From IMG/VR virus record IMGVR_UViG_2778261667_000017: a stretch of 64,000 nucleotides of DNA; one strand, written 5' to 3'. This DNA is from a virus. Its lineage: Duplodnaviria; Heunggongvirae; Uroviricota; Caudoviricetes. The notes beneath the pieces are model-generated. The model was not told the DNA's origin. It worked only from the letters and a program-made list of their open reading frames with translations, and made no database searches. This document shows positions 1 through 48,064 of this stretch, in pieces (the first letter of the stretch is position 1; every line of letters begins with the position of its first letter). A program made the position numbers and the translations under genes.

Positions 1-1128
1 TCACAACGCTACTTTGATCCATCCTTTGCCTCGATCGTCATGATAACGATCGGTTTGCTGTTGTGTTTTATGACCAAGTAGTTTTTGTGTATCTAACCCC
101 TGTTCTTTGTACAGACGTTCAGATAAAGACCTTTGTTCATGGAATGTGGCAGGTGAACCTTCCCCCCAATCAATTCCTGCTAGATCCCTCGCTTTACTGA
201 AATTCATCGTCAATGTATTGGATTTAACCTGCGCGCCACGTTCGGCCTGTGAAGTAGTACGGAAAAAATGTACTAAGTATGGGCTGACTGCGTAGTCACG
301 GCAGCGGGCTACTACATCGCGTAAACTCCAGTTAATCGCGTTGAGACGAAGAGAAAGAGGAATTGCGATTTTGCTCCCGGTCTTTTCCTGAATGATATGG
401 AGATGATCATCCCAAATATCGCTAAATTTCATACGCGAGATATCACCTAACCTCTGACCGGTAACCAGTGCTAACAGCATGGCATTCCCCATATAACGAT
501 GACTGGCATCTGCGATATCAAAGATTTTTTGCCATTCTTCAAGGCTTAACCGTTGTCGGGTAATTTTTCTTCTGGGCTGTTTGGTCGCTAATGCTGGATT
601 ATAGCCAGGAGGGACCTCCCCATAGTGTTGTGCCTCCTTGAATACATCAATTAGAACGGAGCGGACTACTTGCGCCATCCTCGGTTGCCCAGCAGTGATA
701 TACTCGTCAAGCAATTGTGCTATATCCCTTACATCAACGGATGAAATTAACTTCATTCCTGCTCGTTCCCTGAGCAAGGATACTGGTTTGGCTTTCTGTT
801 TATAGGTGTTGAGCTTTATATCGCCACTTTTCAGTCTGTCATCCTGGATTGCTTGATAGCGATCTAACCAGGTTGACGTTGTGATTGCTTTTCCTTTGCT
901 GGTTGCGATCCTGTCACTGATAGCCAGAATCTGCCGGGTTCTTTGCTCAGCCAGGCGTGTATTGGCCTCAGTGGCAATAGCAATGGCTTCAGCTTCGTTT
1001 GCGCCCAAAGAATGAAACTTCCCGGTCACTGGATGCTTATATCGCCAATAGACTTTATTTACTTTTCTGCTATAGAGCGGATACAAGTTCGGGACTGAGA
1101 CATTATTTTTACGTGGTCTGGCTGCCAT
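1..1128 (-). CDS. int: Tyrosine integrase (e14 IntE-like), 375 aa
   Basis: 375-aa ORF; lambdoid integrase N-terminus and C-terminal catalytic region (HxxR...Y); sits at prophage end with xis upstream. Confidence 0.9.
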   Translation of the reverse strand: MAARPRKNNVSVPNLYPLYSRKVNKVYWRYKHPVTGKFHSLGANEAEAIAIATEANTRLAEQRTRQILAISDRIATSKGKAITTSTWLDRYQAIQDDRLKSGDIKLNTYKQKAKPVSLLRERAGMKLISSVDVRDIAQLLDEYITAGQPRMAQVVRSVLIDVFKEAQHYGEVPPGYNPALATKQPRRKITRQRLSLEEWQKIFDIADASHRYMGNAMLLALVTGQRLGDISRMKFSDIWDDHLHIIQEKTGSKIAIPLSLRLNAINWSLRDVVARCRDYAVSPYLVHFFRTTSQAERGAQVKSNTLTMNFSKARDLAGIDWGEGSPATFHEQRSLSERLYKEQGLDTQKLLGHKTQQQTDRYHDDRGKGWIKVAL

Positions 1129-1354
1129 TACTTAAAATCCTTTGTAGAATAATAGAATCACTTTTCTTGATGACAGGAGTAACTAATTCCCCAACTAACT
1201 CTGCGTCCTCACGTACTCGCCAGAGTCGACCTTGTTTCATTGCTGGTGGACAAAATAAATTCTGCTTAGCATAACGACGCAATGTGGACACACTTGGAGG
1301 ATTACTCCTAAATTTTTCCGCAGCCCATTCCTCAAGTGTCAGCATTTGAAGCAT
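1109..1354 (-). CDS. xis: Excisionase, about 81 aa
   Basis: Small ORF overlapping int start; Xis-like motif (TLEEW...RRYAKQ...PPA.K.GR.W); start chosen at internal ATG with GAGG 9 nt upstream. Confidence 0.75.
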   Translation of the reverse strand: MLQMLTLEEWAAEKFRSNPPSVSTLRRYAKQNLFCPPAMKQGRLWRVREDAELVGELVTPVIKKSDSIILQRILSNGSQTT

Positions 1355-1409
1355 TTTTGATAACCTCATTTCTTTTGCTACAAAACTATTTCACTAGTTA
1401 ATTTCGCTG

Positions 1410-1946
1410 TCAGGATTGTTTATGTATCTTATGCAGCTCTTTAAATCGTTCCATAAACATTCCGTAGGCATGACCCGGTGCCAGTGGAATCACTTTGAAC
1501 ATCTCTGTTGCCGGGATACCTTCCAGTACAGGCCAGAAAGAGCCATCATCAAGTCCGAGATCGCGGCGTTCGGTTGCCAGCATGATGAGATCGGCATATT
1601 TCACGGGCGTACTCATAACTGGGGGTAACCCGTATTTCTCACGGATTACGGCGTCTATTTTTTCTTCCATCCGTTTATAGTCAGGAAGAAGGTGTTTCAG
1701 TGGTGCGGGGATGTCCTGGCAATATGCTTCTGTTGCATCATGCATTAACGCTTCAAAAGCAAATTCCTGCGGTACCAGCTGGCTGCAAAGCACCGCATGT
1801 TGGGCGACGCTGTAGAAGTGTGAAAGATGTCCTGCAAAACGACAGATATTTGAAAGGGAAACCGCGATATCGTTAATAACGATGTCATCTTTATTTATCT
1901 TGTCATAATAAAAATGCTTCCCGGAAAAAGTTTTAATAAATGACAT
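1410..1946 (-). CDS. yfdR: HD-domain phosphohydrolase, YfdR-like, 178 aa
   Basis: H...HD motif (ALMHDATEAY); N-terminus MSFIKTFSGKHFYYD as remembered for CPS-53 YfdR. Confidence 0.8.
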   Translation of the reverse strand: MSFIKTFSGKHFYYDKINKDDIVINDIAVSLSNICRFAGHLSHFYSVAQHAVLCSQLVPQEFAFEALMHDATEAYCQDIPAPLKHLLPDYKRMEEKIDAVIREKYGLPPVMSTPVKYADLIMLATERRDLGLDDGSFWPVLEGIPATEMFKVIPLAPGHAYGMFMERFKELHKIHKQS

Positions 1947-2073
1947 TTTGTTCTCCACGTATATGCCCTGCACCGCGCTGAATTCTGGTAAAAAGAATCC
2001 CTTACCATCCGGCGATTATTGAGTAAATTACGTTTCCATAAATGCCCCCGCAGGGGCATTTGCAGTAATGAAA

Positions 2074-2898
2074 TCAGGCGGTGAAAGTACCAATAAAGGT
2101 TTCTACTTTGCTGTCTTTGAATTTCTCAACAAGCAGATCACGAAATTCGTTAGCCATTTCTTCCTGGACTGCTTCCAACTGAATAATGCGCAGAACCAGT
2201 ACAGGACGATCGCCAGTGATAATGCTGAGGCGTAATTTAAACGGACGTTCTTTCAGACCTTCAAACGGAACGCATTTAAATTCAAATGCCACTGGCATAA
2301 TATCTTTGGTCTTCGCTTCGACAGACTCCATCAGGGAGCGTTTTCCGCTGAAGTCATTATCTTCAAAATCAGCGGTCTGGTTTGCTTCAATCGTGATTTT
2401 ACGGACAGCCGCAGCCGCTTTTGTTGCCTGAATAGCGTCACCATTAGCATCAAAGCCTACAAGGTAGTCGGCCCAGTCTTCAATCCATTCTGCCAGTGAC
2501 TTCTGGGAGTTACGCTCGCCATTAACAGACAACAGAGCAGAGAACGGTGCTGTCTTTTTCAGTTTGAGAGTGGCGGTGTTATCTGCATGACCAGGTTCAT
2601 CAATAGTGCCTAGGTTAAGCACACTGACGGCTCGCATATTATCGGCATCGATAAAGCAGCGGGTGCCTTCATCTGCAAGATCTTTAGAATAACGGGTAAA
2701 GTCATCGATGCTGGCAGTGGAAAGCGCACCACGGAAACGGAAGCGATTTAAATTAAATTTTTCCAGATCATGAATGCGGAAATTTTCAGGTAATGCCACT
2801 GCGTCGGCACCAATCTTACTGATAATTTCATTAACACCCTGAGCAGAAATAAGGGCATGGATTTGATTAATTGCGGTTGCGTCTAAGTTCTGAGACAT
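2074..2898 (-). CDS. yfdQ: YfdQ-like protein (DUF2303), 274 aa
   Basis: 274-aa ORF matching remembered YfdQ length and sequence; conserved order yfdP-yfdQ-yfdR. Confidence 0.8.
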
Positions 2899-2963: not shown

Positions 2964-3326
2964 TTAATAACCTGCTGCGCGGAGTTTTCCGTCAGGTTCA
3001 CCGGCAAGAGTCAGTAATTGTCCCTGGTCTTCCTGCAGAATAGTCAGGCGACCACCGCGATTGACATACATCGGCGTTTCGGTGGTGTCTTCTTCGGAAA
3101 TTTTCCCGCGGTTAGTCGGGCGAACATATGAGAGTTTGTGTTTGATTTTCACACGGTTCTCATCAAATGGTTCGATTTCCAGGTTGAGTGAGACCTTACC
3201 TTTGGTTTTCGTGTTCATCACACCGGAAGCGACTTCACTGAGAACTGCACCGATTTTGGTTTCAAATACGCCGCCGTCCAGCTCCCCGATAAATGCCTGC
3301 ACATCAGTACTGCGTTCGCTAGCCAT
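2964..3326 (-). CDS. yfdP: YfdP-like protein, 120 aa
   Basis: Internal ATG (MASERSTD...) preceded by GAGGAG at 7-nt spacing; longer ORF-track N-terminus lies in the structured GC-rich region. Confidence 0.7.
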   Translation of the reverse strand: MASERSTDVQAFIGELDGGVFETKIGAVLSEVASGVMNTKTKGKVSLNLEIEPFDENRVKIKHKLSYVRPTNRGKISEEDTTETPMYVNRGGRLTILQEDQGQLLTLAGEPDGKLRAAGY

Positions 3327-3339
3327 TTTGCTGCTCCTC

Positions 3340-3790
3340 ATCATATCGACCCTGCAAGGCCGGTTGGTTTCTCCACAAAACAGAGAAGAACACCTGCGGT
3401 GGCAGCCGCCCGGATGGATTGGGTTATGAGCCCGTCGTCCGGTGATGCTCTTCTCTGTTTTGTAAAAAGGACGGTACCAGCCGGAAGCAAGGGTACAAGC
3501 TGGTACCGCCAAGACTACACACAGCATAAAGTTGTGGTGCCGGGCGCCTCCCGGTGCCTAGCGAAGGTTGCACACCAGGCGGGTGGGTATCCACAGAAGG
3601 TCGACTGTCAGCCTCAACCTTTACCCGCGTGCGCTGAGCCGCATTCACCACAACGCTAAGGATTCTCTCTGGTTGAAAATACTTAGCTGTTATGTGCCTG
3701 CTTTTAGCCACATCAGGCGAGGTGGACCTGGTTATTCCCCAACAACAAGGATTCGGTTAATCTGGTTATCCCCAACAACGCAAAAGGAAA
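3340..3790. other. GC-rich structured non-coding region with nested inverted repeats and two direct repeats; candidate ncRNA or early-left promoter region
   Basis: Perfect 15-bp inverted repeat 3375-3389/3449-3463; 10-bp inverted repeat 3472-3481/3499-3508; direct repeats ctggttat(t)ccccaacaac at 3728-3747 and 3762-3780; overlapping ORFs here have non-protein-like composition. Confidence 0.4.
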
Positions 3791-3794
3791 AGAA

Positions 3795-4229
3795 ATGTCC
3801 GGTAATATCTATACGCTGTACAAATCCCACTGTGAAAATGTTGGAAAGTATCGGGGCATTGAAATCAGTGGGGTAGTGTCATCAGTCGAAATAAGCAAAG
3901 TTGAATCAAGGGCAACATTACTTACTCTTCTGGACCTTGTCTTACATGAGCACCGGAAGAAATTCGGCACTCCCTATAATCAGTTGAATGGGAAAAAGGC
4001 TCTGGTTCACCTTATTCTGATGAAGCATCACTGGATGCCAAAACAGATTAATGAGATGAAATTTGATGAACTTCTTCTTTCAATTCAGGATGAACTCACA
4101 CTTGATAAAATAAGCGTAACCGCCCAGAAATTTTTAGATTATCGAGACTGGAGATCACAAATTCATCACTTTGATGATTTTGACGAAAATGAATGGGATC
4201 CTAATTTGTCTGCACAATATCTAAAGTAA
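3795..4229 (+). CDS. Hypothetical protein, 144 aa
   Basis: ORF with AAGGA-type RBS about 8 nt upstream; protein-like composition; no recognisable family. Confidence 0.6.
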   Translation: MSGNIYTLYKSHCENVGKYRGIEISGVVSSVEISKVESRATLLTLLDLVLHEHRKKFGTPYNQLNGKKALVHLILMKHHWMPKQINEMKFDELLLSIQDELTLDKISVTAQKFLDYRDWRSQIHHFDDFDENEWDPNLSAQYLK

Positions 4230-4565: not shown

Positions 4566-4620
4566 AACACCTTTAAGTTGTAATTTAGTTGTGATTTTGA
4601 ACATTGTCAACAACTTTATG
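4566..4620. promoter_or_regulatory. Operator-like motifs shared with the cI-cro intergenic region (putative OL-type site)
   Basis: aacacctttaagttgtaa (4566-4583) and gtcaacaactttatg (4606-4620) match aacacctaaaagttgtga (6286-6303) and ttacaactttatg (6261-6273). Confidence 0.55.
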
Positions 4621-4673
4621 TGGTTTGAACGTGTAGTCAAGGAGTGCAAGGATTATCAAAAAAAGGAGGTTGT

Positions 4674-5564
4674 ATGGAAGACGCGCTTTACGCTTTTAAT
4701 TACACACAGAACCGGGACAAGTTATTTGCTAACTTGATTAGCATCATTGATGGAATCATTGCAGATGGAGTTGTCCGTGAAGAGGAGGTTCTTTACTTAG
4801 ATACATGGTTACTTGAAGCAAAGCAGATTATCAATAATGGAGTTATAAAAAGTCTATCAGCACGGGTGTCGGATATTCTTGCGGATGGAATAATCACATC
4901 AGAAGAACGTGATGACCTTAAAAATAGCCTTCTCCAAATACAGAGGGAAATTCTTGATATCCCTGAAATTGATTTTTACTCCAAGGATGTAGATGTCCAT
5001 TTACTTAATGGACTATGTAAAGGATTAATTGCTGATCGGAACTTAACTCAAGAAGAAATAAGATATCTTAATTGGTGGCTTGAGCAAAATGGAGCTTTGA
5101 AGAACAACTACCCAGGAAAAAAACTTTATGCACTTGTAAAGGAAATTCTTAAAGATGGGGTTATTACTGAAGATGAGAGTTTAACTCTACATAAGGCATT
5201 AGTAGACTTCACAGGATGTGACTTGGAAAGTGGGGTGGTGGATGGTTTGGCGACCAGGCTGCCTATTGATGTAGGGGCTTCGATAGAGTTAGAGGGTAAA
5301 ACCTATTGTCTTACAGGCACTTTTGTTGCAGGAAAGAGAGCCGTAGTTGAAAATTTGATTAAAAATGCTGGTGGGAACATCAGTAGTGGAATTACTCAAA
5401 AGTTGGATTTTTTAGTAATTGGGACGCTTTCCTCCCGTGATTGGAAATTCTCAAGTCACGGAAGGAAGATCGAAAAAGCTATATCTTATAGGGATGATAA
5501 TGGTGCAAAACTTAAAATTATTTCTGAAGAAATGCTTTTCGATGCATTACCAAGTTCGCGATGA
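4674..5564 (+). CDS. BRCT-domain protein with four N-terminal helical repeats, 296 aa
   Basis: AAGGAGG RBS 4 nt upstream of ATG; C-terminus GKTYCLTGTF...KLDFLVIG...KLKIISEEMLFDAL fits the BRCT pattern of NAD-ligase C-termini; four repeats of about 35 aa with D-G-[IV]-[IV]-x-x-E-E signature. Confidence 0.75.
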   Translation: MEDALYAFNYTQNRDKLFANLISIIDGIIADGVVREEEVLYLDTWLLEAKQIINNGVIKSLSARVSDILADGIITSEERDDLKNSLLQIQREILDIPEIDFYSKDVDVHLLNGLCKGLIADRNLTQEEIRYLNWWLEQNGALKNNYPGKKLYALVKEILKDGVITEDESLTLHKALVDFTGCDLESGVVDGLATRLPIDVGASIELEGKTYCLTGTFVAGKRAVVENLIKNAGGNISSGITQKLDFLVIGTLSSRDWKFSSHGRKIEKAISYRDDNGAKLKIISEEMLFDALPSSR

Positions 5565-6233
5565 CCAGAATACCCTACCTATAACATGAATTCTGGCTCG
5601 TCTATCTTCAAAGGTGAGTATTTCATCTGGGTACTCATCTTTGTTGAAGCTTCTAAGAATCAAGCCACCGTCAGGTAAGTTGATAAGTATTTTAACCCTT
5701 AGCAATACACCATCTCGTACGGCATAAAGATCGCCATCACGAATAGGAATGGTTTGAGAAATATCAACGGCAACAAGATCTCCATTATTGAGAACCGGTA
5801 ATAAACTGTTCCCCCATATTTTTACGATCTTGGCATTAGATGCACATACGCCAGATTTTCTCAAATCTGCTCTTCTTAACGGAAACCAGTCAATAGCTGA
5901 TTCAACTATTTCAGCCAGACATCCGTTACCTGCCGATAACTCGACATCTAAAACAGGAATGTTTACGAAAATATCGGGGTCTAATGCGGTGCTTTCTGCT
6001 TCTTTTACAACAAGATCAGGTATGGATGCGTTGTCTTCAATACCAAGTTGTAACCACTTTTGTGATACACCTAAAACTTTTGCAATTTCTTTAATTTTGC
6101 GCGGTTGTAGAGTTTCGCCATTCTCTATTTTGGCTACAGATTGTTGTGAAAGTCCAATTTTTTCAGCTAGTTGAGCTTGGCTCATGCCAGCTTTCTCTCT
6201 ACCTATCTTTAATCGTTCTGCCAGTGTTTTCAC
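5547..6233 (-). CDS. cI: CI-type repressor (XRE HTH + S24 LexA-like peptidase), 228 aa
   Basis: N-terminal HTH (MSQAQLAEKIGLSQQSVAKIENG), C-terminal S24 autopeptidase motifs; divergent from cro. Confidence 0.9.
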   Translation of the reverse strand: MKTLAERLKIGREKAGMSQAQLAEKIGLSQQSVAKIENGETLQPRKIKEIAKVLGVSQKWLQLGIEDNASIPDLVVKEAESTALDPDIFVNIPVLDVELSAGNGCLAEIVESAIDWFPLRRADLRKSGVCASNAKIVKIWGNSLLPVLNNGDLVAVDISQTIPIRDGDLYAVRDGVLLRVKILINLPDGGLILRSFNKDEYPDEILTFEDRRARIHVIGRVFWSSRTW

Positions 6234-6368
6234 AACATATCCCTCTCTTTTTTGATGAGGTTACAACTTTATGTTTTAGCTTTCCAACACCTAAAAGTTG
6301 TGATAAAAGTTGTTAATGTTGTATTCTTGCAACTCGTAACAACTTAACTACCTAAAAAGGAGAAAGCT
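6234..6368. promoter_or_regulatory. cI-cro intergenic operator/promoter region (OR-like)
   Basis: Divergent genes; repeated ACAACTTT/AAAGTTGT half-sites at 6261-6345. Confidence 0.65.
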
Positions 6369-6617
6369 ATGACACCTGAGCAATTAGCCTTATCGGAGGC
6401 AATCGCTCTGGCTGGTGGTCAATCAGAATTGGCTCGGAAGCTCACAGCCAGCAGCGGTCATTTAGTAAAGCAACAACATGTCTGGAACTGGTTGAACAGA
6501 GAAAAGCGTCCCCCTGCAAAGCTCTCGATATTCATTGAAAAGACCACTGGCATATCAAAAGAAAAATTACGTCCAGATATTTTTCAAAAGATTAAAGATT
6601 CATCAGATGAAAAGTAA
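6369..6617 (+). CDS. cro: Cro-like HTH regulator, 82 aa
   Basis: Small HTH protein divergent from cI; AGGAG RBS. Confidence 0.8.
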   Translation: MTPEQLALSEAIALAGGQSELARKLTASSGHLVKQQHVWNWLNREKRPPAKLSIFIEKTTGISKEKLRPDIFQKIKDSSDEK

Positions 6618-6639: not shown

Positions 6640-7197
6640 GTGGGTAAGCATCACTGGAAAGTAGAAAAACAGCCTAAGTGGTACGTGAAAGCTGTCAGAA
6701 AAACTATCGCAGCGTTGCCGGGGGGTTACGCTGAAGCAGCTGACTGGCTGGATGTAACAGAGAACGCATTATTTAATCGCCTTCGTGCCGATGGCGATCA
6801 AATTTTCCCGCTGGGATGGGCAATGATTTTACAACGTGCTGGTGGCACTCACTTCATTGCTGACGCTGTGGCGCAGTCTGCAAATGGCGTCTTTGTGTCT
6901 CTTCCTGACGTCGAGGATGTGGACAACGCCGATATTAACCAGCGTCTGCTGGAAGTCATTGAACAGATCGGCAGTTATTCAAAACAGATTCGTTCAGCAA
7001 TCGAAGACGGTGTAGTGGAACCGCATGAGAAGACAGCAATTAACGACGAGCTGTACCTCTCAATTTCGAAGCTGCAGGAGCATGCAGCACTTGTCTACAA
7101 AATTTTTTGCATTTCAGAAAGTAATGACGCCCGCGAGTGTGCAGCTCCGGGCGTCGTGGCGTCGATTGCTTCTGGTTGTGGAGAAACTAACGCATGA
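6640..7197 (+). CDS. CII/YdaT-like regulator, about 185 aa (GTG start)
   Basis: Position immediately after cro; AAGGAG 6 nt upstream of GTG at 6640; family assignment tentative. Confidence 0.55.
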
Positions 7198-44534: not shown

Positions 44535-44667
44535 TTTTTGGGACTCCTGGCTGATTAAGTATGTCGATAAGGCGTTTCCATCCGTCACGTAATTTACGGG
44601 TAATTCGTTCAAGTAAAGATTCGGAAGGGCAGCCAGCAACAGGCCACCCTGCAATGGCATATTGCAT
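44503..44667 (-). CDS. cIII: CIII (FtsH inhibitor), 54 aa
   Basis: Translated from sequence: MQYAIAGWPVAGCPSESLLERITRKLRDGW...; GGAG RBS; overlaps kil by 32 nt as in lambda. Confidence 0.8.
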   Translation of the reverse strand: MQYAIAGWPVAGCPSESLLERITRKLRDGWKRLIDILNQPGVPKNGSNTYGYPD

Positions 44668-44739
44668 GGTGTGCTCCTTATTTATACATAACGAAAAACG
44701 CCTCGAGTGAAGCGTTATTGGTATGCGGTAACGCCGCGT

Positions 44740-46012: not shown

Positions 46013-46225
46013 ACGGATAGTCCTGGTATTGTTCCATCACATCCTGAGGATGCTCTTCGAACTCTTCAAATTCTTCTTCCATATATCACCTTAAATAGTG
46101 GATTGCGGTAGTAAAGATTGTGCCTGTCTTTTAACCACATCAGGCTCGGTGGTTCTCATGTACCACTACAGCGAGAAATCGGATAAACTCTATTCACCCC
46201 TACAGAGAGCAAAAGAGAAACGCCG

Positions 46226-46807
46226 ATGAACAACTCATGGTGGCAGGAACTAATGCATTTTTTCCTGCAAGGAATGACACTTAAACAGTTGATTCATATG
46301 CTAATCATCCTGATCATATTGATTATTGTTATGCCGGTAAGCGTAAAAGAATGGATAAACCTGCATAATCCAGAAATCCTTCCTCATTACTGGATGTATT
46401 ACATCCTGTTGTTTTGCGTTAGCTATGTGCTTAACGGCGTTGTTAATTCCGCTTATCACGCTGTGACTGAAAGAATTGAGGTATCCGCTGCTCAGAAGCG
46501 CAAATCTAAAGAAGAAAAATATGTGCAAGATTTGTTTGATTCATTAACTCTTGGAGAAAGAGCGTATTTGGCATTTGCTGTAGCCGCTAATAACCAGCTA
46601 CAAACGGAAAAGGGAGCTCATGAATCAATTTCATTGCTCAAAAAAGGACTCCTCGCTCGAAGGCCTCCTGCTGTTGGATATCCTGATACCGACCGTTTCG
46701 TTATCCCTGAAAGCTATAGACATGAGTGCTACATTAGGTTTGCCGGGAAGGCAGACAGCCTTATGGATGAACTTATCGCTCAGGATAAGCATGGCAAAAA
46801 CAAGTAA
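46226..46807 (+). CDS. sieB: Superinfection exclusion protein SieB, 193 aa
   Basis: Hydrophobic N-terminal half with TM helices; size and position match lambda/P22 sieB. Confidence 0.75.
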   Translation: MNNSWWQELMHFFLQGMTLKQLIHMLIILIILIIVMPVSVKEWINLHNPEILPHYWMYYILLFCVSYVLNGVVNSAYHAVTERIEVSAAQKRKSKEEKYVQDLFDSLTLGERAYLAFAVAANNQLQTEKGAHESISLLKKGLLARRPPAVGYPDTDRFVIPESYRHECYIRFAGKADSLMDELIAQDKHGKNK

Positions 46808-46823
46808 TTAGCAAATGAATTTA

Positions 46824-47096
46824 TCATCTCGCCGTCAGTTGTTTTGATTTCCGGTAGCCTGCCGCGTAAATGGCTACGTTTGGCAGGCAAATACTTCCAC
46901 TGCATTCATCTGCCTTCTTGCAGCGAAGGCTTCCGAGTGATGCTGCTTTGTCTGCTCTGACGCAACCAGAGAGCTTTAGCGCAATTTTTCGCGCCAGTCG
47001 CTGTTCTTGCATTGCCTGCTCACGTTGAGCCTGTCTGCGTGCTCTGCGGCGATTTCTGGCGTTATCGTCAGCCAGATATGTAATGACTACTGCCAT
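46824..47096 (-). CDS. N: N-type antiterminator (P22 gp24-like), 90 aa
   Basis: Arginine-rich RNA-binding motif NARNRRRARRQAQ; C-terminus LPNVAIYAAGYRKSKQLTAR; first gene left of the immunity region. Confidence 0.75.
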   Translation of the reverse strand: MAVVITYLADDNARNRRRARRQAQREQAMQEQRLARKIALKLSGCVRADKAASLGSLRCKKADECSGSICLPNVAIYAAGYRKSKQLTAR

Positions 47097-47395: not shown

Positions 47396-47420
47396 AAAAG
47401 GGGCGAATGCCCCTTATGGA
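47396..47420 (-). terminator. Rho-independent terminator directly after the repressor stop
   Basis: On minus strand: ggggc-attc-gcccc followed by tttttttt. Confidence 0.55.
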
Positions 47421-48064
47421 AGGTTTGCTATTTTTGCATCGACAACTACACCGATGATTTTGCAGTTCCCGTTGATCTCAATCATCGGATATTGTGGGTT
47501 AAGTGGTTTTAGAAACCTTCTGCCAGCATCAATAACTAACTTCTTGAAAGTTGCCTCGTTTTCTCCTTCGAGCTTTGCCACTACCAGCTTCCCATTACGA
47601 GGTTCTACTTCAGGATCGACTAGTATTATCATCCCTTCCGGGATGCTAAGACCGGCTGGAGCCGTCATCGAATCACCCTTTACGTCCAGCCAAAACGAAT
47701 CTTCTGAACAATCTACGGTTGTATCGTACCAGTTATCTATTGCACGCTTATGATATGGCTCTACAGCTTCCATCCAACATCCTGCGCTTACCCAACTAAT
47801 TAGAGGATACGAACCTCTTGGATCATGCCTGCTGTGATAGGCAATGTTTGAAAGACTATCTTCTCCTTTCAACAAGTAATCAGGGGAGCACTGTAAAGCC
47901 TTGGCTAAAGCCAATAGGTTTTCGCCATTGGGCTCAGTTTCAGAACGCTCCCATTGGGAAATAGCAACATTAGACACGCCAACCATCTTGCCAAGGGCAG
48001 CCTGCCTAATCTTAAGTTCTTTTCTGCGAGCGCGAATACGCTCACCCATCAGTTGTGTATTCAT
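47414..48064 (-). CDS. c2: P22 C2-type repressor (HTH + S24 peptidase), 216 aa
   Basis: Near-identity to remembered P22 C2 N-terminus (MNTQLMGERIRARRKELKIRQAALGKMVGVSNVAISQWERSETEPNGENLLAL). Confidence 0.95.
   Translation of the reverse strand: MNTQLMGERIRARRKELKIRQAALGKMVGVSNVAISQWERSETEPNGENLLALAKALQCSPDYLLKGEDSLSNIAYHSRHDPRGSYPLISWVSAGCWMEAVEPYHKRAIDNWYDTTVDCSEDSFWLDVKGDSMTAPAGLSIPEGMIILVDPEVEPRNGKLVVAKLEGENEATFKKLVIDAGRRFLKPLNPQYPMIEINGNCKIIGVVVDAKIANLP

Follow-up and report, generated by a model that had tools for sequence, protein, structure and literature searches.

The region examined here, positions 3340-3790, belongs to a 64,000-nt stretch of viral DNA (the window; Caudoviricetes, IMG/VR record IMGVR_UViG_2778261667_000017), where it lies in the early-left arm of a lambdoid prophage, between the immunity region and a yfdP-like gene. 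We consider it probable that positions 3340-3690 are the minus-strand leader preceding yfdPQR-xis-int, in which an STnc100-class small RNA (sRNA) carrying the seed of RprA is joined to an attenuator and a cis-acting hairpin. Judged by its sequence, the leader probably makes an sRNA with the RprA recognition sequence. The functional strand is probably the minus strand, on which the STnc100 matches, the U-tract of the terminator, the wobble pairs of two hairpins (hairpin-2 and HP3) and the better fold are found. The inverted repeats of the region, which a preliminary description of this DNA had pointed out, are parts of minus-strand RNA structures and not protein-binding sites of a leftward promoter. 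The parts of the leader are as follows.

3684-3461, minus strand: STnc100-like sRNA unit of structured body, seed and terminator, from the alignment to the whole RF02076 model
3531-3654, minus strand: multibranch core, closed by the stem GUUGUGGUG (3654-3646) / CACCACAAC (3539-3531)
3511-3526, minus strand: single-stranded seed UGCUGUGUGUAGUCUU, identical to nt 62-77 of E. coli RprA
3510-3464, minus strand: predicted intrinsic terminator, a 3′ module of the Hfq type, with the stem GGCGGUACCAGC/GCUGGUACCGUC over 3510-3470 and then U5 at 3468-3464
3375-3463, minus strand: hairpin-2, a three-way junction with a 20-bp basal stem, P2 (CCGGACG/CAUCCGG) and a small variable P3
3421-3433, minus strand: apical hairpin GGG-CUCAUAA-CCC within the invariant ACGGGCUCAUAACCCAAUC, resembling the tRNA-fMet anticodon stem-loop
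3330-3374, minus strand: end of the leader, with a conserved GGAGAAAC box, HP3 (3362-3347, loop UUGCAG) and the Shine-Dalgarno sequence GAGGAG (3339-3334) of yfdP

An STnc100-like domain on the minus strand

The region is GC-rich, as had been described (0.54-0.59 over 3300-3700 versus 0.35-0.45 in the flanks), and when the RNA folding proposed as a check was run here, the minus strand reached z = -4.47 and the plus strand z = -2.72 against shuffles. The Rfam scan proposed alongside it returned no family in the region at gathering thresholds, while a permissive scan gave a match to STnc100 (RF02076) in which positions 1-206 of the 206 in the model were aligned, on the minus strand only (43.2 bits, E 5.4e-8). 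This score is below the 47 bits at which Rfam admits STnc100 (the gathering scores of RprA and DicF, considered below, are 70 and 48 bits). Sub-threshold STnc100 matches were found at the same place in e14, SfV, ST64B and the Cronobacter phage phiES15, with relatives scoring 29-41 bits; canonical STnc100 copies elsewhere score 62-90 bits.

A consensus fold of the core was derived from 12 diverse sequences, comprising copies of this type, Rac-prophage copies and one canonical STnc100. It contains 23 pairs, 8 of them with compensatory changes, such as GC<->UA in the 3′ hairpin (6:6) and UA<->CG and UA<->AU in the closing stem, and it keeps the closing stem, the 5′ hairpin (UGCG/CGCA in the folds) and the CCGGG-loop-CCCGG hairpin (CCGGG-AGGCG-CCCGG). 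All the elements of the STnc100 fold, namely these three and a 3′ terminator, are present in the window.

STnc100/PasD RNAs (RF02076; EcOnc27 and EcOnc05 in enterohaemorrhagic E. coli, EHEC) have relatives that are Hfq-bound sRNAs in EHEC and enteropathogenic E. coli (PMC4104026; bioRxiv 10.64898/2026.05.13.724894; PMC12711010). The window element resembles them in the full-model alignment, the same closing stem, the GUGAAU junction, the CACCGGGAGGCNCCCGGCACC hairpin, the intrinsic terminator at the end, and in being prophage-borne with many copies per genome. It differs in its sub-threshold score, in bearing another seed with a 3′ end of the DicF/RprA type, and in its place: it sits in an early-left leader, not in the late region downstream of Q/pR′, stx or tRNAs and near lysis genes. 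PasB was also considered as the identity of the sRNA and was rejected because it sits among structural genes.

A predicted terminator with a DicF-like entry

The predicted terminator corresponds to a 10-bp inverted repeat noted earlier (3472-3481/3499-3508), which is perfect, forms about 13 bp as RNA and is followed by UUUUU on the minus strand. Around 50 distinct hairpin forms follow the seed, with correctly cut segments at roughly -14 to -33 kcal/mol and median dG values of -20.6 (sense) versus -16.9 (antisense), in a survey where some segments were cut short at U-runs inside loops.

The entry into this terminator, UUGGCGGUACCAG, resembles that of DicF (RF00039), an sRNA of the Qin prophage. 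Like DicF, the element lies within a repressor-controlled leftward operon of a lambdoid prophage, enters its terminator by ..UUGGCGGUA(U/C)CAG.. and would probably be made by termination and processing of the operon transcript. The DicF-model match in the window is weak (19.4 bits versus the threshold of 48), and stronger ones were obtained in relatives (28.5 bits in e14; 39.1 bits in a Rac-type prophage, L031). Unlike DicF, the window element has another seed and no ftsZ-pairing loop.

A seed identical to that of RprA

Between the core and the terminator stands the single-stranded UGCUGUGUGUAGUCUU. A full-text search with this sequence led to its recognition as part of RprA, whose sequence was taken from PMC5606850 and PMC7311995. 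The window shares 16 contiguous nt with RprA (RF00034). In relatives the shared run reaches as much as 26 nt, continuing into a terminator like that of RprA and taking in its stem. As in RprA, the single-stranded UGCUGUGUGUAGUC is directly 5′ of the terminator, and the same duplex with the csgD 5′ untranslated region (5′UTR) can form: the seed is perfectly complementary to it at -99..-83, with a perfect duplex of 13-15 bp.

The likeness ends there. No RprA-model match occurs in the window at E <= 10, and the matches in relatives (37.9-41 bits) fall short of 70 bits. RprA's 5′ hairpins and its rpoS-pairing CCCCUGAG...AACGAAUU are lacking; over the rpoS-leader pairing segment (around C42 to nt 61) the window reads CACCACAACUUUA versus CCCCUGAGUGAAACAACGAAU in RprA, and CAACGAAU of RprA is kept by some relatives only (L104). 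Unlike RprA, which is a core-genome RNA under Rcs control, the window element is phage-borne and not tied to an RcsB-dependent promoter. Since none of the three Rfam families admits the element at its threshold, we file it as a variant of the prophage Hfq-type sRNAs (STnc100/PasD, DicF, RprA-like).

The seed allele is kept in elements of E. coli, Salmonella, Klebsiella, Citrobacter, Cronobacter, Mixta and Buttiauxella, in which body and terminator are swapped. In a pattern scan of viral contigs together with a sample selected by hairpin-2, the upstream body was exchanged among at least 6 unrelated designs while the seed stayed.

A target of the seed was sought inside the window, and none was found; the HP0 loop, which offers 8 bp in e14, was rejected, as this pairing is absent in the window. 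The 5′ end of the RNA, CAGGCACAUAACAGC (3687-3700, minus strand), is partly complementary to the seed (3511-3526, minus strand); the pairing appears in the minimum-free-energy fold of a 471-nt region and is absent from the centroid structure. It could represent an auto-inhibition released by processing. At the joint of core and seed, the 11 nt ACAACTTTATG (3525-3535) are identical to an OR operator repeat (6263-6273), probably by coincidence, because the sRNA sequence is common to phages with other immunities.

Hairpin-2 and the end of the leader

Read-through of the terminator would lead into hairpin-2. Its 20-bp basal stem contains a 15-bp inverted repeat that had been reported as perfect and is so (3375-3389/3449-3463), extending to 25-nt arms that are 84% complementary (3375-3399/3439-3463). 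The "further hairpins" seen inside this repeat are real as well, the repeat being the base of a three-way junction whose P2 carries the apical element. Conservation of the stems in related phages had been named as one of the checks, and both inverted repeats are kept with compensatory changes in many phages. For hairpin-2, 94.9% of cells were paired across 30 sequences from at least 8 genera, with compensatory changes in 11 of 32 pairs; none of 500 shuffles reached the observed pairing, and slid controls gave 37-54%. A U.G wobble kept in 25 of the 30 sequences fits the minus strand only; read from the other strand, it becomes a C.A mismatch.

The tip shares 14 identical nt (CGGGCTCATAACCC) with the tRNA-fMet anticodon arm of metY of MG1655, including three G-C pairs and the CAU. 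The same 19-mer was found in one Acidobacteriaceae metagenome-assembled genome and in >120 metagenome contigs, and its flanks fall into at least 7 unrelated contexts, in which the 7-bp P2 helix is kept and 7 of 7 pairs covary. The motif is covered by no Rfam family, and a full-text search for its sequence gave no paper. The phage tRNA-Ile gene ileZ (CAU) was rejected as the source of the tip, its arm being GCGACUCAUAAUCGC and not GGG/CCC. Pairing of the CUCAUAA loop with the Shine-Dalgarno/AUG of yfdP was likewise rejected: it amounts to 5 bp in the window and is not conserved in the ST64B or Klebsiella copies. Tentatively, and with doubt, we suggest that hairpin-2 may be an apparently undescribed phage leader RNA motif that spans phyla and whose tip functionally mimics the initiator-tRNA anticodon arm to engage a universal host factor. 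Candidates that read that arm are the 30S P site with initiation factor 3 (IF3), methionyl-tRNA synthetase (MetRS) and a VapC-type nuclease that cleaves tRNA-fMet.

The stems of HP3 covary between phages (CGGCC/GGUCG, UGGCGG/CCGCCA, AACGCC/GGCGUU, GCCCC/GGGGC), and the window copy has a G.U pair workable on the minus strand only. Most copies contain a short open reading frame (ORF) after hairpin-2 (GUG/AUG GAG AAA ...) that ends at the Shine-Dalgarno sequence, with neither frame nor peptide conserved. In e14- and SfV-type copies hairpin-2 is followed by UGUGGAGAAACUAAC, where the window reads UGUGGAGAAACCAAC (3374-3360, minus strand). We also observed UGUGGAGAAACUAAC at the ymfL/ymfM junction, at about 7170-7197 of the window (the end of a ymfL-like ORF, assigned from the ORF translation only). 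In K-12 this junction is the site of the antisense sRNA candidate ECS003 (probe sequence, PMC3175480).

Distribution of the cassette and a purely cis-acting function

The element was found in 2780 of 5426 complete E. coli genomes, and its parts recur in other arrangements. In Rac-type prophages the seed and terminator come first, followed by the STnc100-like core and then kilR. In other phages the hairpin-2 motif stands just upstream of holin/endolysin genes, after a phage tRNA-Thr and/or a canonical STnc100 (78-90 bits). Leaders of about 600 nt occur in cdtI, Stx2a/2c, phiNP and Klebsiella phages and contain T-arm-like motifs, some with other seed alleles; two T-arm-like GGTTCGATTCC motifs occur in those of Klebsiella Kp4866-6, Citrobacter phiNP and the Stx2a/2c phages (L005 2700-3100, L007, L009). 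ARAGORN found no tRNA in the long leaders L005 and L007. Taken together, the distribution shows that the leader is a mobile RNA cassette moving between early-left and late-lysis operons.

The whole cassette might instead act only in cis, as a leader that governs processing, stability or antitermination (as tRNA-like punctuation, as an entry site for RNase III/E or as a put-like RNA that acts on RNA polymerase), in which case the RprA-like stretch is kept for a cis function. We judge all these forms together unlikely. They would account for the order of STnc100 and hairpin-2 recurring 5′ of two kinds of long phage operon, early-left and late lysis, for the T-arm-like motifs in the Kp4866, phiNP and Stx2a leaders, and for the 20-bp basal stem; in addition, the Pfam/PHROG annotation of neighbouring genes revealed no N-like protein adjoining the early-left promoter pL in these phages. 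Hairpin-2 can be compared with the RNase III hairpin of the lambda N leader and the put RNAs of HK022, which are cis-acting leader elements of pL operons: it is large and conserved, stands between the promoter-proximal region and the first early-left gene, and has a 20-bp basal helix. Unlike them, it follows a terminator, shows no putL sequence similarity and carries an initiator-tRNA anticodon-arm-like tip that neither of them has. A put-like antiterminator was rejected, as no similarity to the HK022 pL-putL-nun interval was detected; the element, at about 900 nt from pL, is not the two-stem, put-like sequence just downstream of pL/pR that defines put RNAs, and hairpin-2, being transcribed only after the terminator, cannot assist RNA polymerase in passing it. 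A tRNA-like form finds no counterpart either, as ARAGORN detected no tRNA or tmRNA in the window or the four relatives scanned and Rfam no tRNA in the window; there is no cloverleaf, only the tRNA-fMet anticodon arm being copied. Finally, an invariant seed amid exchanged neighbouring helices is the signature of pairing in trans.

Contrary expression evidence and the plus strand

Several points weigh against an RprA-seed sRNA made from the minus strand. The STnc100, RprA and DicF scores are all below the gathering scores. The seed allele is borne by 16 of 25 loci in an independent set selected by hairpin-2, and part of its invariance in the viral scan was built in, the seed being a requirement of the pattern searched for. 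The shuffle control of the csgD duplex is weak, with 19 of 300 shuffles equally good. Directly upstream on the minus strand there is no convincing sigma-70 promoter; transcription would have to start either at pL, about 900 nt off and on the far side of the convergent 144-aa gene, or at a promoter that escaped recognition within the conserved block at 3696-3725. The small-RNA survey of E. coli K-12 by Shinhara et al. has no entry at ymfH, the gene annotated at the homologous site of e14. Moreover, the only published K-12 read at that site is a 35-nt species, GAAAAAACTGGTACCGCCAAGACTACACACAGCAT "(+st)" (PMC4398507), in a study that prints reads in RNA sense. It maps to MG1655 1,201,223-1,201,257 (+), antisense to the predicted seed and terminator 5′ arm. 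The minus-strand transcript is thus predicted from sequence, and what evidence of expression exists is scant and in part contrary.

The e14 homologue is a member of the intE-xisE-ymfH operon and of the YmfT i-modulon (PMC12133099). ECS009 and the other K-12 candidates of Shinhara et al. are unrelated in sequence, and EcOnc08/21 of the Sakai prophage Sp4 were rejected as this element because they are located in the late region. The early-left arm of Sp4 has no EcOnc peak in the EHEC (Sakai) table of Hfq cross-linking and analysis of cDNA (CRAC), which is uninformative here as this arm differs from that of the element.

The 35-nt read, which is unexplained if the minus strand is the functional one, is the basis of the main rival. 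Its site is homologous to window 3494-3527, within ymfH, and 13 nt of it are those of the RprA site in csgD; the species was abundant inside and outside K-12 cells and one of the two most abundant small RNAs derived from e14 (PMC4398507). A functional RNA on the plus strand could be an anti-sRNA, in which CCAAGACUACACACAGCA would serve as a target mimic sponging RprA, or one partner of a sense/antisense pair, and prophage anti-sRNAs such as AgvB and AsxR are an established class (PMC4104026). We nevertheless regard this as quite improbable. The mimic would lack a terminator or a conserved 3′ module, with downstream sequence that differs by cassette type, and the read starts inside a hairpin loop, with no evident plus-strand promoter upstream. 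The read comes from one dataset with low coverage of prophage reads, and the wobbles, the STnc100 homology and the RprA-like terminators of relatives (26-nt identity in L018) favour the minus strand. The element is like AgvB/AsxR in being a short module with a variable or transplanted recognition segment and a conserved terminator, linked to the core sRNA network. AgvB/AsxR mimic an mRNA target and sponge a core sRNA, whereas the conserved strand here bears the sRNA's own seed, which makes it an sRNA mimic; the sole observation in keeping with a sponge of that type is the unexplained plus-strand read.

The conserved block, the direct repeats and the early-left promoter

Upstream of the leader lie two further conserved features, and the early-left promoter is found beyond them.

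3696-3725: conserved 30-nt block TGCCTGCTTTTAGCCACATCAGGCGAGGTGG (plus-strand reading) with CCAC-N10-GTGG, in >50 loci
3728-3780, plus strand: duplicated C/A-rich element (UUAUUCCCCAACAAC, UUAUCCCCAACAAC)
4570-4625, minus strand: early-left promoter and operators pL/OL, predicted from sequence, outside the studied region

The direct repeats ctggttat(t)ccccaacaac reported earlier were found again at 3728-3747 and 3762-3780 (a repeat search placed them in a shifted register at 79%) and do stand just upstream of the 144-aa gene (ATG 3795), most likely in its 5′UTR. In most loci the C/A-rich element is single, forms a hairpin loop with covarying stems and abuts AAGGAA plus ATG; in L040 the stem has a G.U pair on the plus strand only. 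The genes that it abuts are varied and on the opposite strand (ymfI in e14, the 144-aa gene here), and we therefore assigned the repeats to the promoter/5′UTR cassette of the plus-strand gene. Positions 3690-3790 would be such a cassette for the divergent 144-aa gene here, and it stands upstream of opposite-strand moron genes elsewhere. The block is a candidate for a compact promoter/operator region between the two divergent units and is nearly invariant in >50 loci with differing repressors and flanks.

A second copy of the block occurs in the window at 46121-46145, within 46121-46230 of a second, lambda-like prophage. With two CUGUAGGGGU-type repeats (minus-strand reading) it lies directly upstream of a sieB-like gene (46226-46807, plus strand), and it is not followed by seed, terminator or hairpin-2.

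Neither of the divergent promoters of 3690-3790 was located with confidence by the promoter scan. No promoter match on either strand and no ACAACTT(T/A)A repeat was found in 3680-3800, and a sigma-70 promoter for the sRNA in the block was rejected. A plus-strand TTCACC-16-TAT(N)CT promoter is plausible in the e14, SfV and phiES15 types and absent in the window type. The sole good minus-strand sigma-70 match nearby is TTGACA-17-TAAATT at 4610-4582 (10 of 12 matches). It is overlapped by ACAACTT(T/A)A repeats, with 9- to 12-mers (ACAACTTTATGT, AGTTGTGAT, ACAACTTAA) shared with the cI-cro intergenic region 6225-6375; by its sequence, such a promoter has the OL/OR signature.

These results bear on the other proposal of the preliminary description, that the region is a DNA-level control region with the promoter and operators of the leftward yfdPQR-xis-int operon and with repeats that bind the 144-aa and 68-aa proteins. 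We hold this to be very improbable. The CCAC-N10-GTGG palindrome between divergent units, a Reg-Seq YhaJ site near -55 of the predicted e14 intE-xisE-ymfH promoter and a sigma-54-like GG-N10-GC that we read in the window-type block would suit it. The sigma-54 reading was rejected, however, as the spacing is N11 in e14-type copies. pL/OL with this phage's operator repeats lie elsewhere, at 4570-4625, and the covariation in the inverted repeats is that of RNA helices. Nor do the direct repeats belong to the regulators of this phage alone, as block and repeats are kept across unrelated repressors and beside unrelated genes. What held of the earlier proposals is the structured sRNA, supported by the full-length STnc100 homology, the sRNA-type 3′ module of seed and intrinsic terminator, and the covarying helices.

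The reading frame annotated as ymfH

The longest ORF in the region (3424-3711, minus strand, 95 aa) is a homologue of K-12 e14 "ymfH". That it encodes a small protein is hardly credible, even though K-12 annotation lists it as ymfH, many genomes carry it as a hypothetical protein, and a ymfH clone triggered the retron-Sen2 toxin RcaT in an overexpression screen (bioRxiv 10.1101/2020.06.22.160242): its frame is switched by 1-nt indels among 36 close homologues, e14 YmfH is a frame chimera relative to it, ST64B has no equivalent ORF, a 98.9%-identical copy is labelled "frameshifted" by the Prokaryotic Genome Annotation Pipeline (PGAP), its product belongs to no Pfam or PHROG family and is Arg/Pro/Gly-rich, and its GTG start has no Shine-Dalgarno sequence. 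The earlier judgement that the region has no credible ORF, and that the overlapping translation is Arg/Pro/Gly-rich, is therefore upheld. The clone used in the toxin screen would also express the RNA. K-12 e14 ymfH (L001 4002-4313) extends from hairpin-2 through the terminator and the seed into most of the core, and RNA could therefore have been the active agent in the RcaT screen.

Genes around the leader and related phages

The window opens with the left arm of the lambdoid prophage, whose genes, and those on the other side of the leader, are arranged as follows.

1-1128, minus strand: int
1109-1369, minus strand: xis
1410-1973, minus strand: yfdR-like gene
2074-2898, minus strand: yfdQ-like gene
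2964-3329, minus strand: yfdP-like gene (ATG 3329), adjoining the studied region
3795-4229, plus strand: 144-aa gene (ATG 3795), right of the studied region
4407-4201, minus strand: 68-aa gene
4644-5564, plus strand: BRCT-domain gene, 306 aa
5547-6233, minus strand: S24/HTH CI-type repressor gene
right of the CI-type repressor gene: cro-like gene

The BRCT-domain gene converges on the 3′ end of cI with an overlap of 18 nt and lies between cI and pL. In lambda, the corresponding place is occupied by rexAB. The second prophage of the window encodes an N-like Arg-rich protein (46824-47096, minus strand) and a CI-like repressor (47414-48064, minus strand), and its early-left arm is marked by a lambda cIII thermoregulator element (44622-44680, minus strand; Rfam RF01804, 88.5 bits).

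On the rightward side of related phages, isrK (Rfam RF01394, 60-65 bits) was found in L003 (5236-5312), L008 (5081-5157), L020 (1241-1315) and L104 (3613-3689). A C4 antisense RNA stands beside it in L020 and L104; in L003 and L008 there are just sub-threshold c4-a1b1 matches. Related phages with isrK/C4 are thus bearers of several sRNA systems.

Proposed action of the leader and its meaning

Under the reading that we favour, positions 3340-3690 would be transcribed leftward as the non-coding leader of yfdPQR-xis-int. The STnc100-type domain, the single-stranded stretch and the strong intrinsic terminator, as judged from sequence and covariation, would yield an sRNA of about 220 nt with an Hfq-type 3′ end, from which RNase E-type processing may free a fragment of about 65 nt starting at the seed, as for DicF and RprA. 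Its seed is identical to nt 62-77 of RprA, and the sRNA should therefore pair with RprA targets, for example the csgD 5′UTR, acting as a phage-borne RprA mimic that lacks RprA's rpoS-pairing segment. The terminator may double as an attenuator that limits expression of yfdPQR-xis-int. RNA that reads through would enter hairpin-2, with its RNase III-sized stem and invariant initiator-tRNA-arm-like tip, and hairpin-2, HP3 and the Shine-Dalgarno sequence may together form a cis-acting leader that sets the processing or translation of the first gene.

The cassette links STnc100/PasD, DicF and RprA, which have been filed separately, as exchangeable modules of one mobile unit. K-12 annotation treats its copy as a protein gene, ymfH, and to read that copy as RNA is to correct a y-gene. 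As an RNA motif, the initiator-tRNA-like hairpin is compact and strongly conserved, and if the mimicry suggested for its tip is true, it would control translation of the operon's first gene or protect the initiator tRNA during infection. Should the sRNA work through the seed that it has in common with RprA, temperate phages in many enterobacteria would plug directly into the RprA regulon, including csgD, curli and biofilm, and cyclic di-GMP signalling. This would be a phage copy of a host sRNA seed, the reverse of what the known prophage anti-sRNAs do, in an element carried by about half of complete E. coli genomes.

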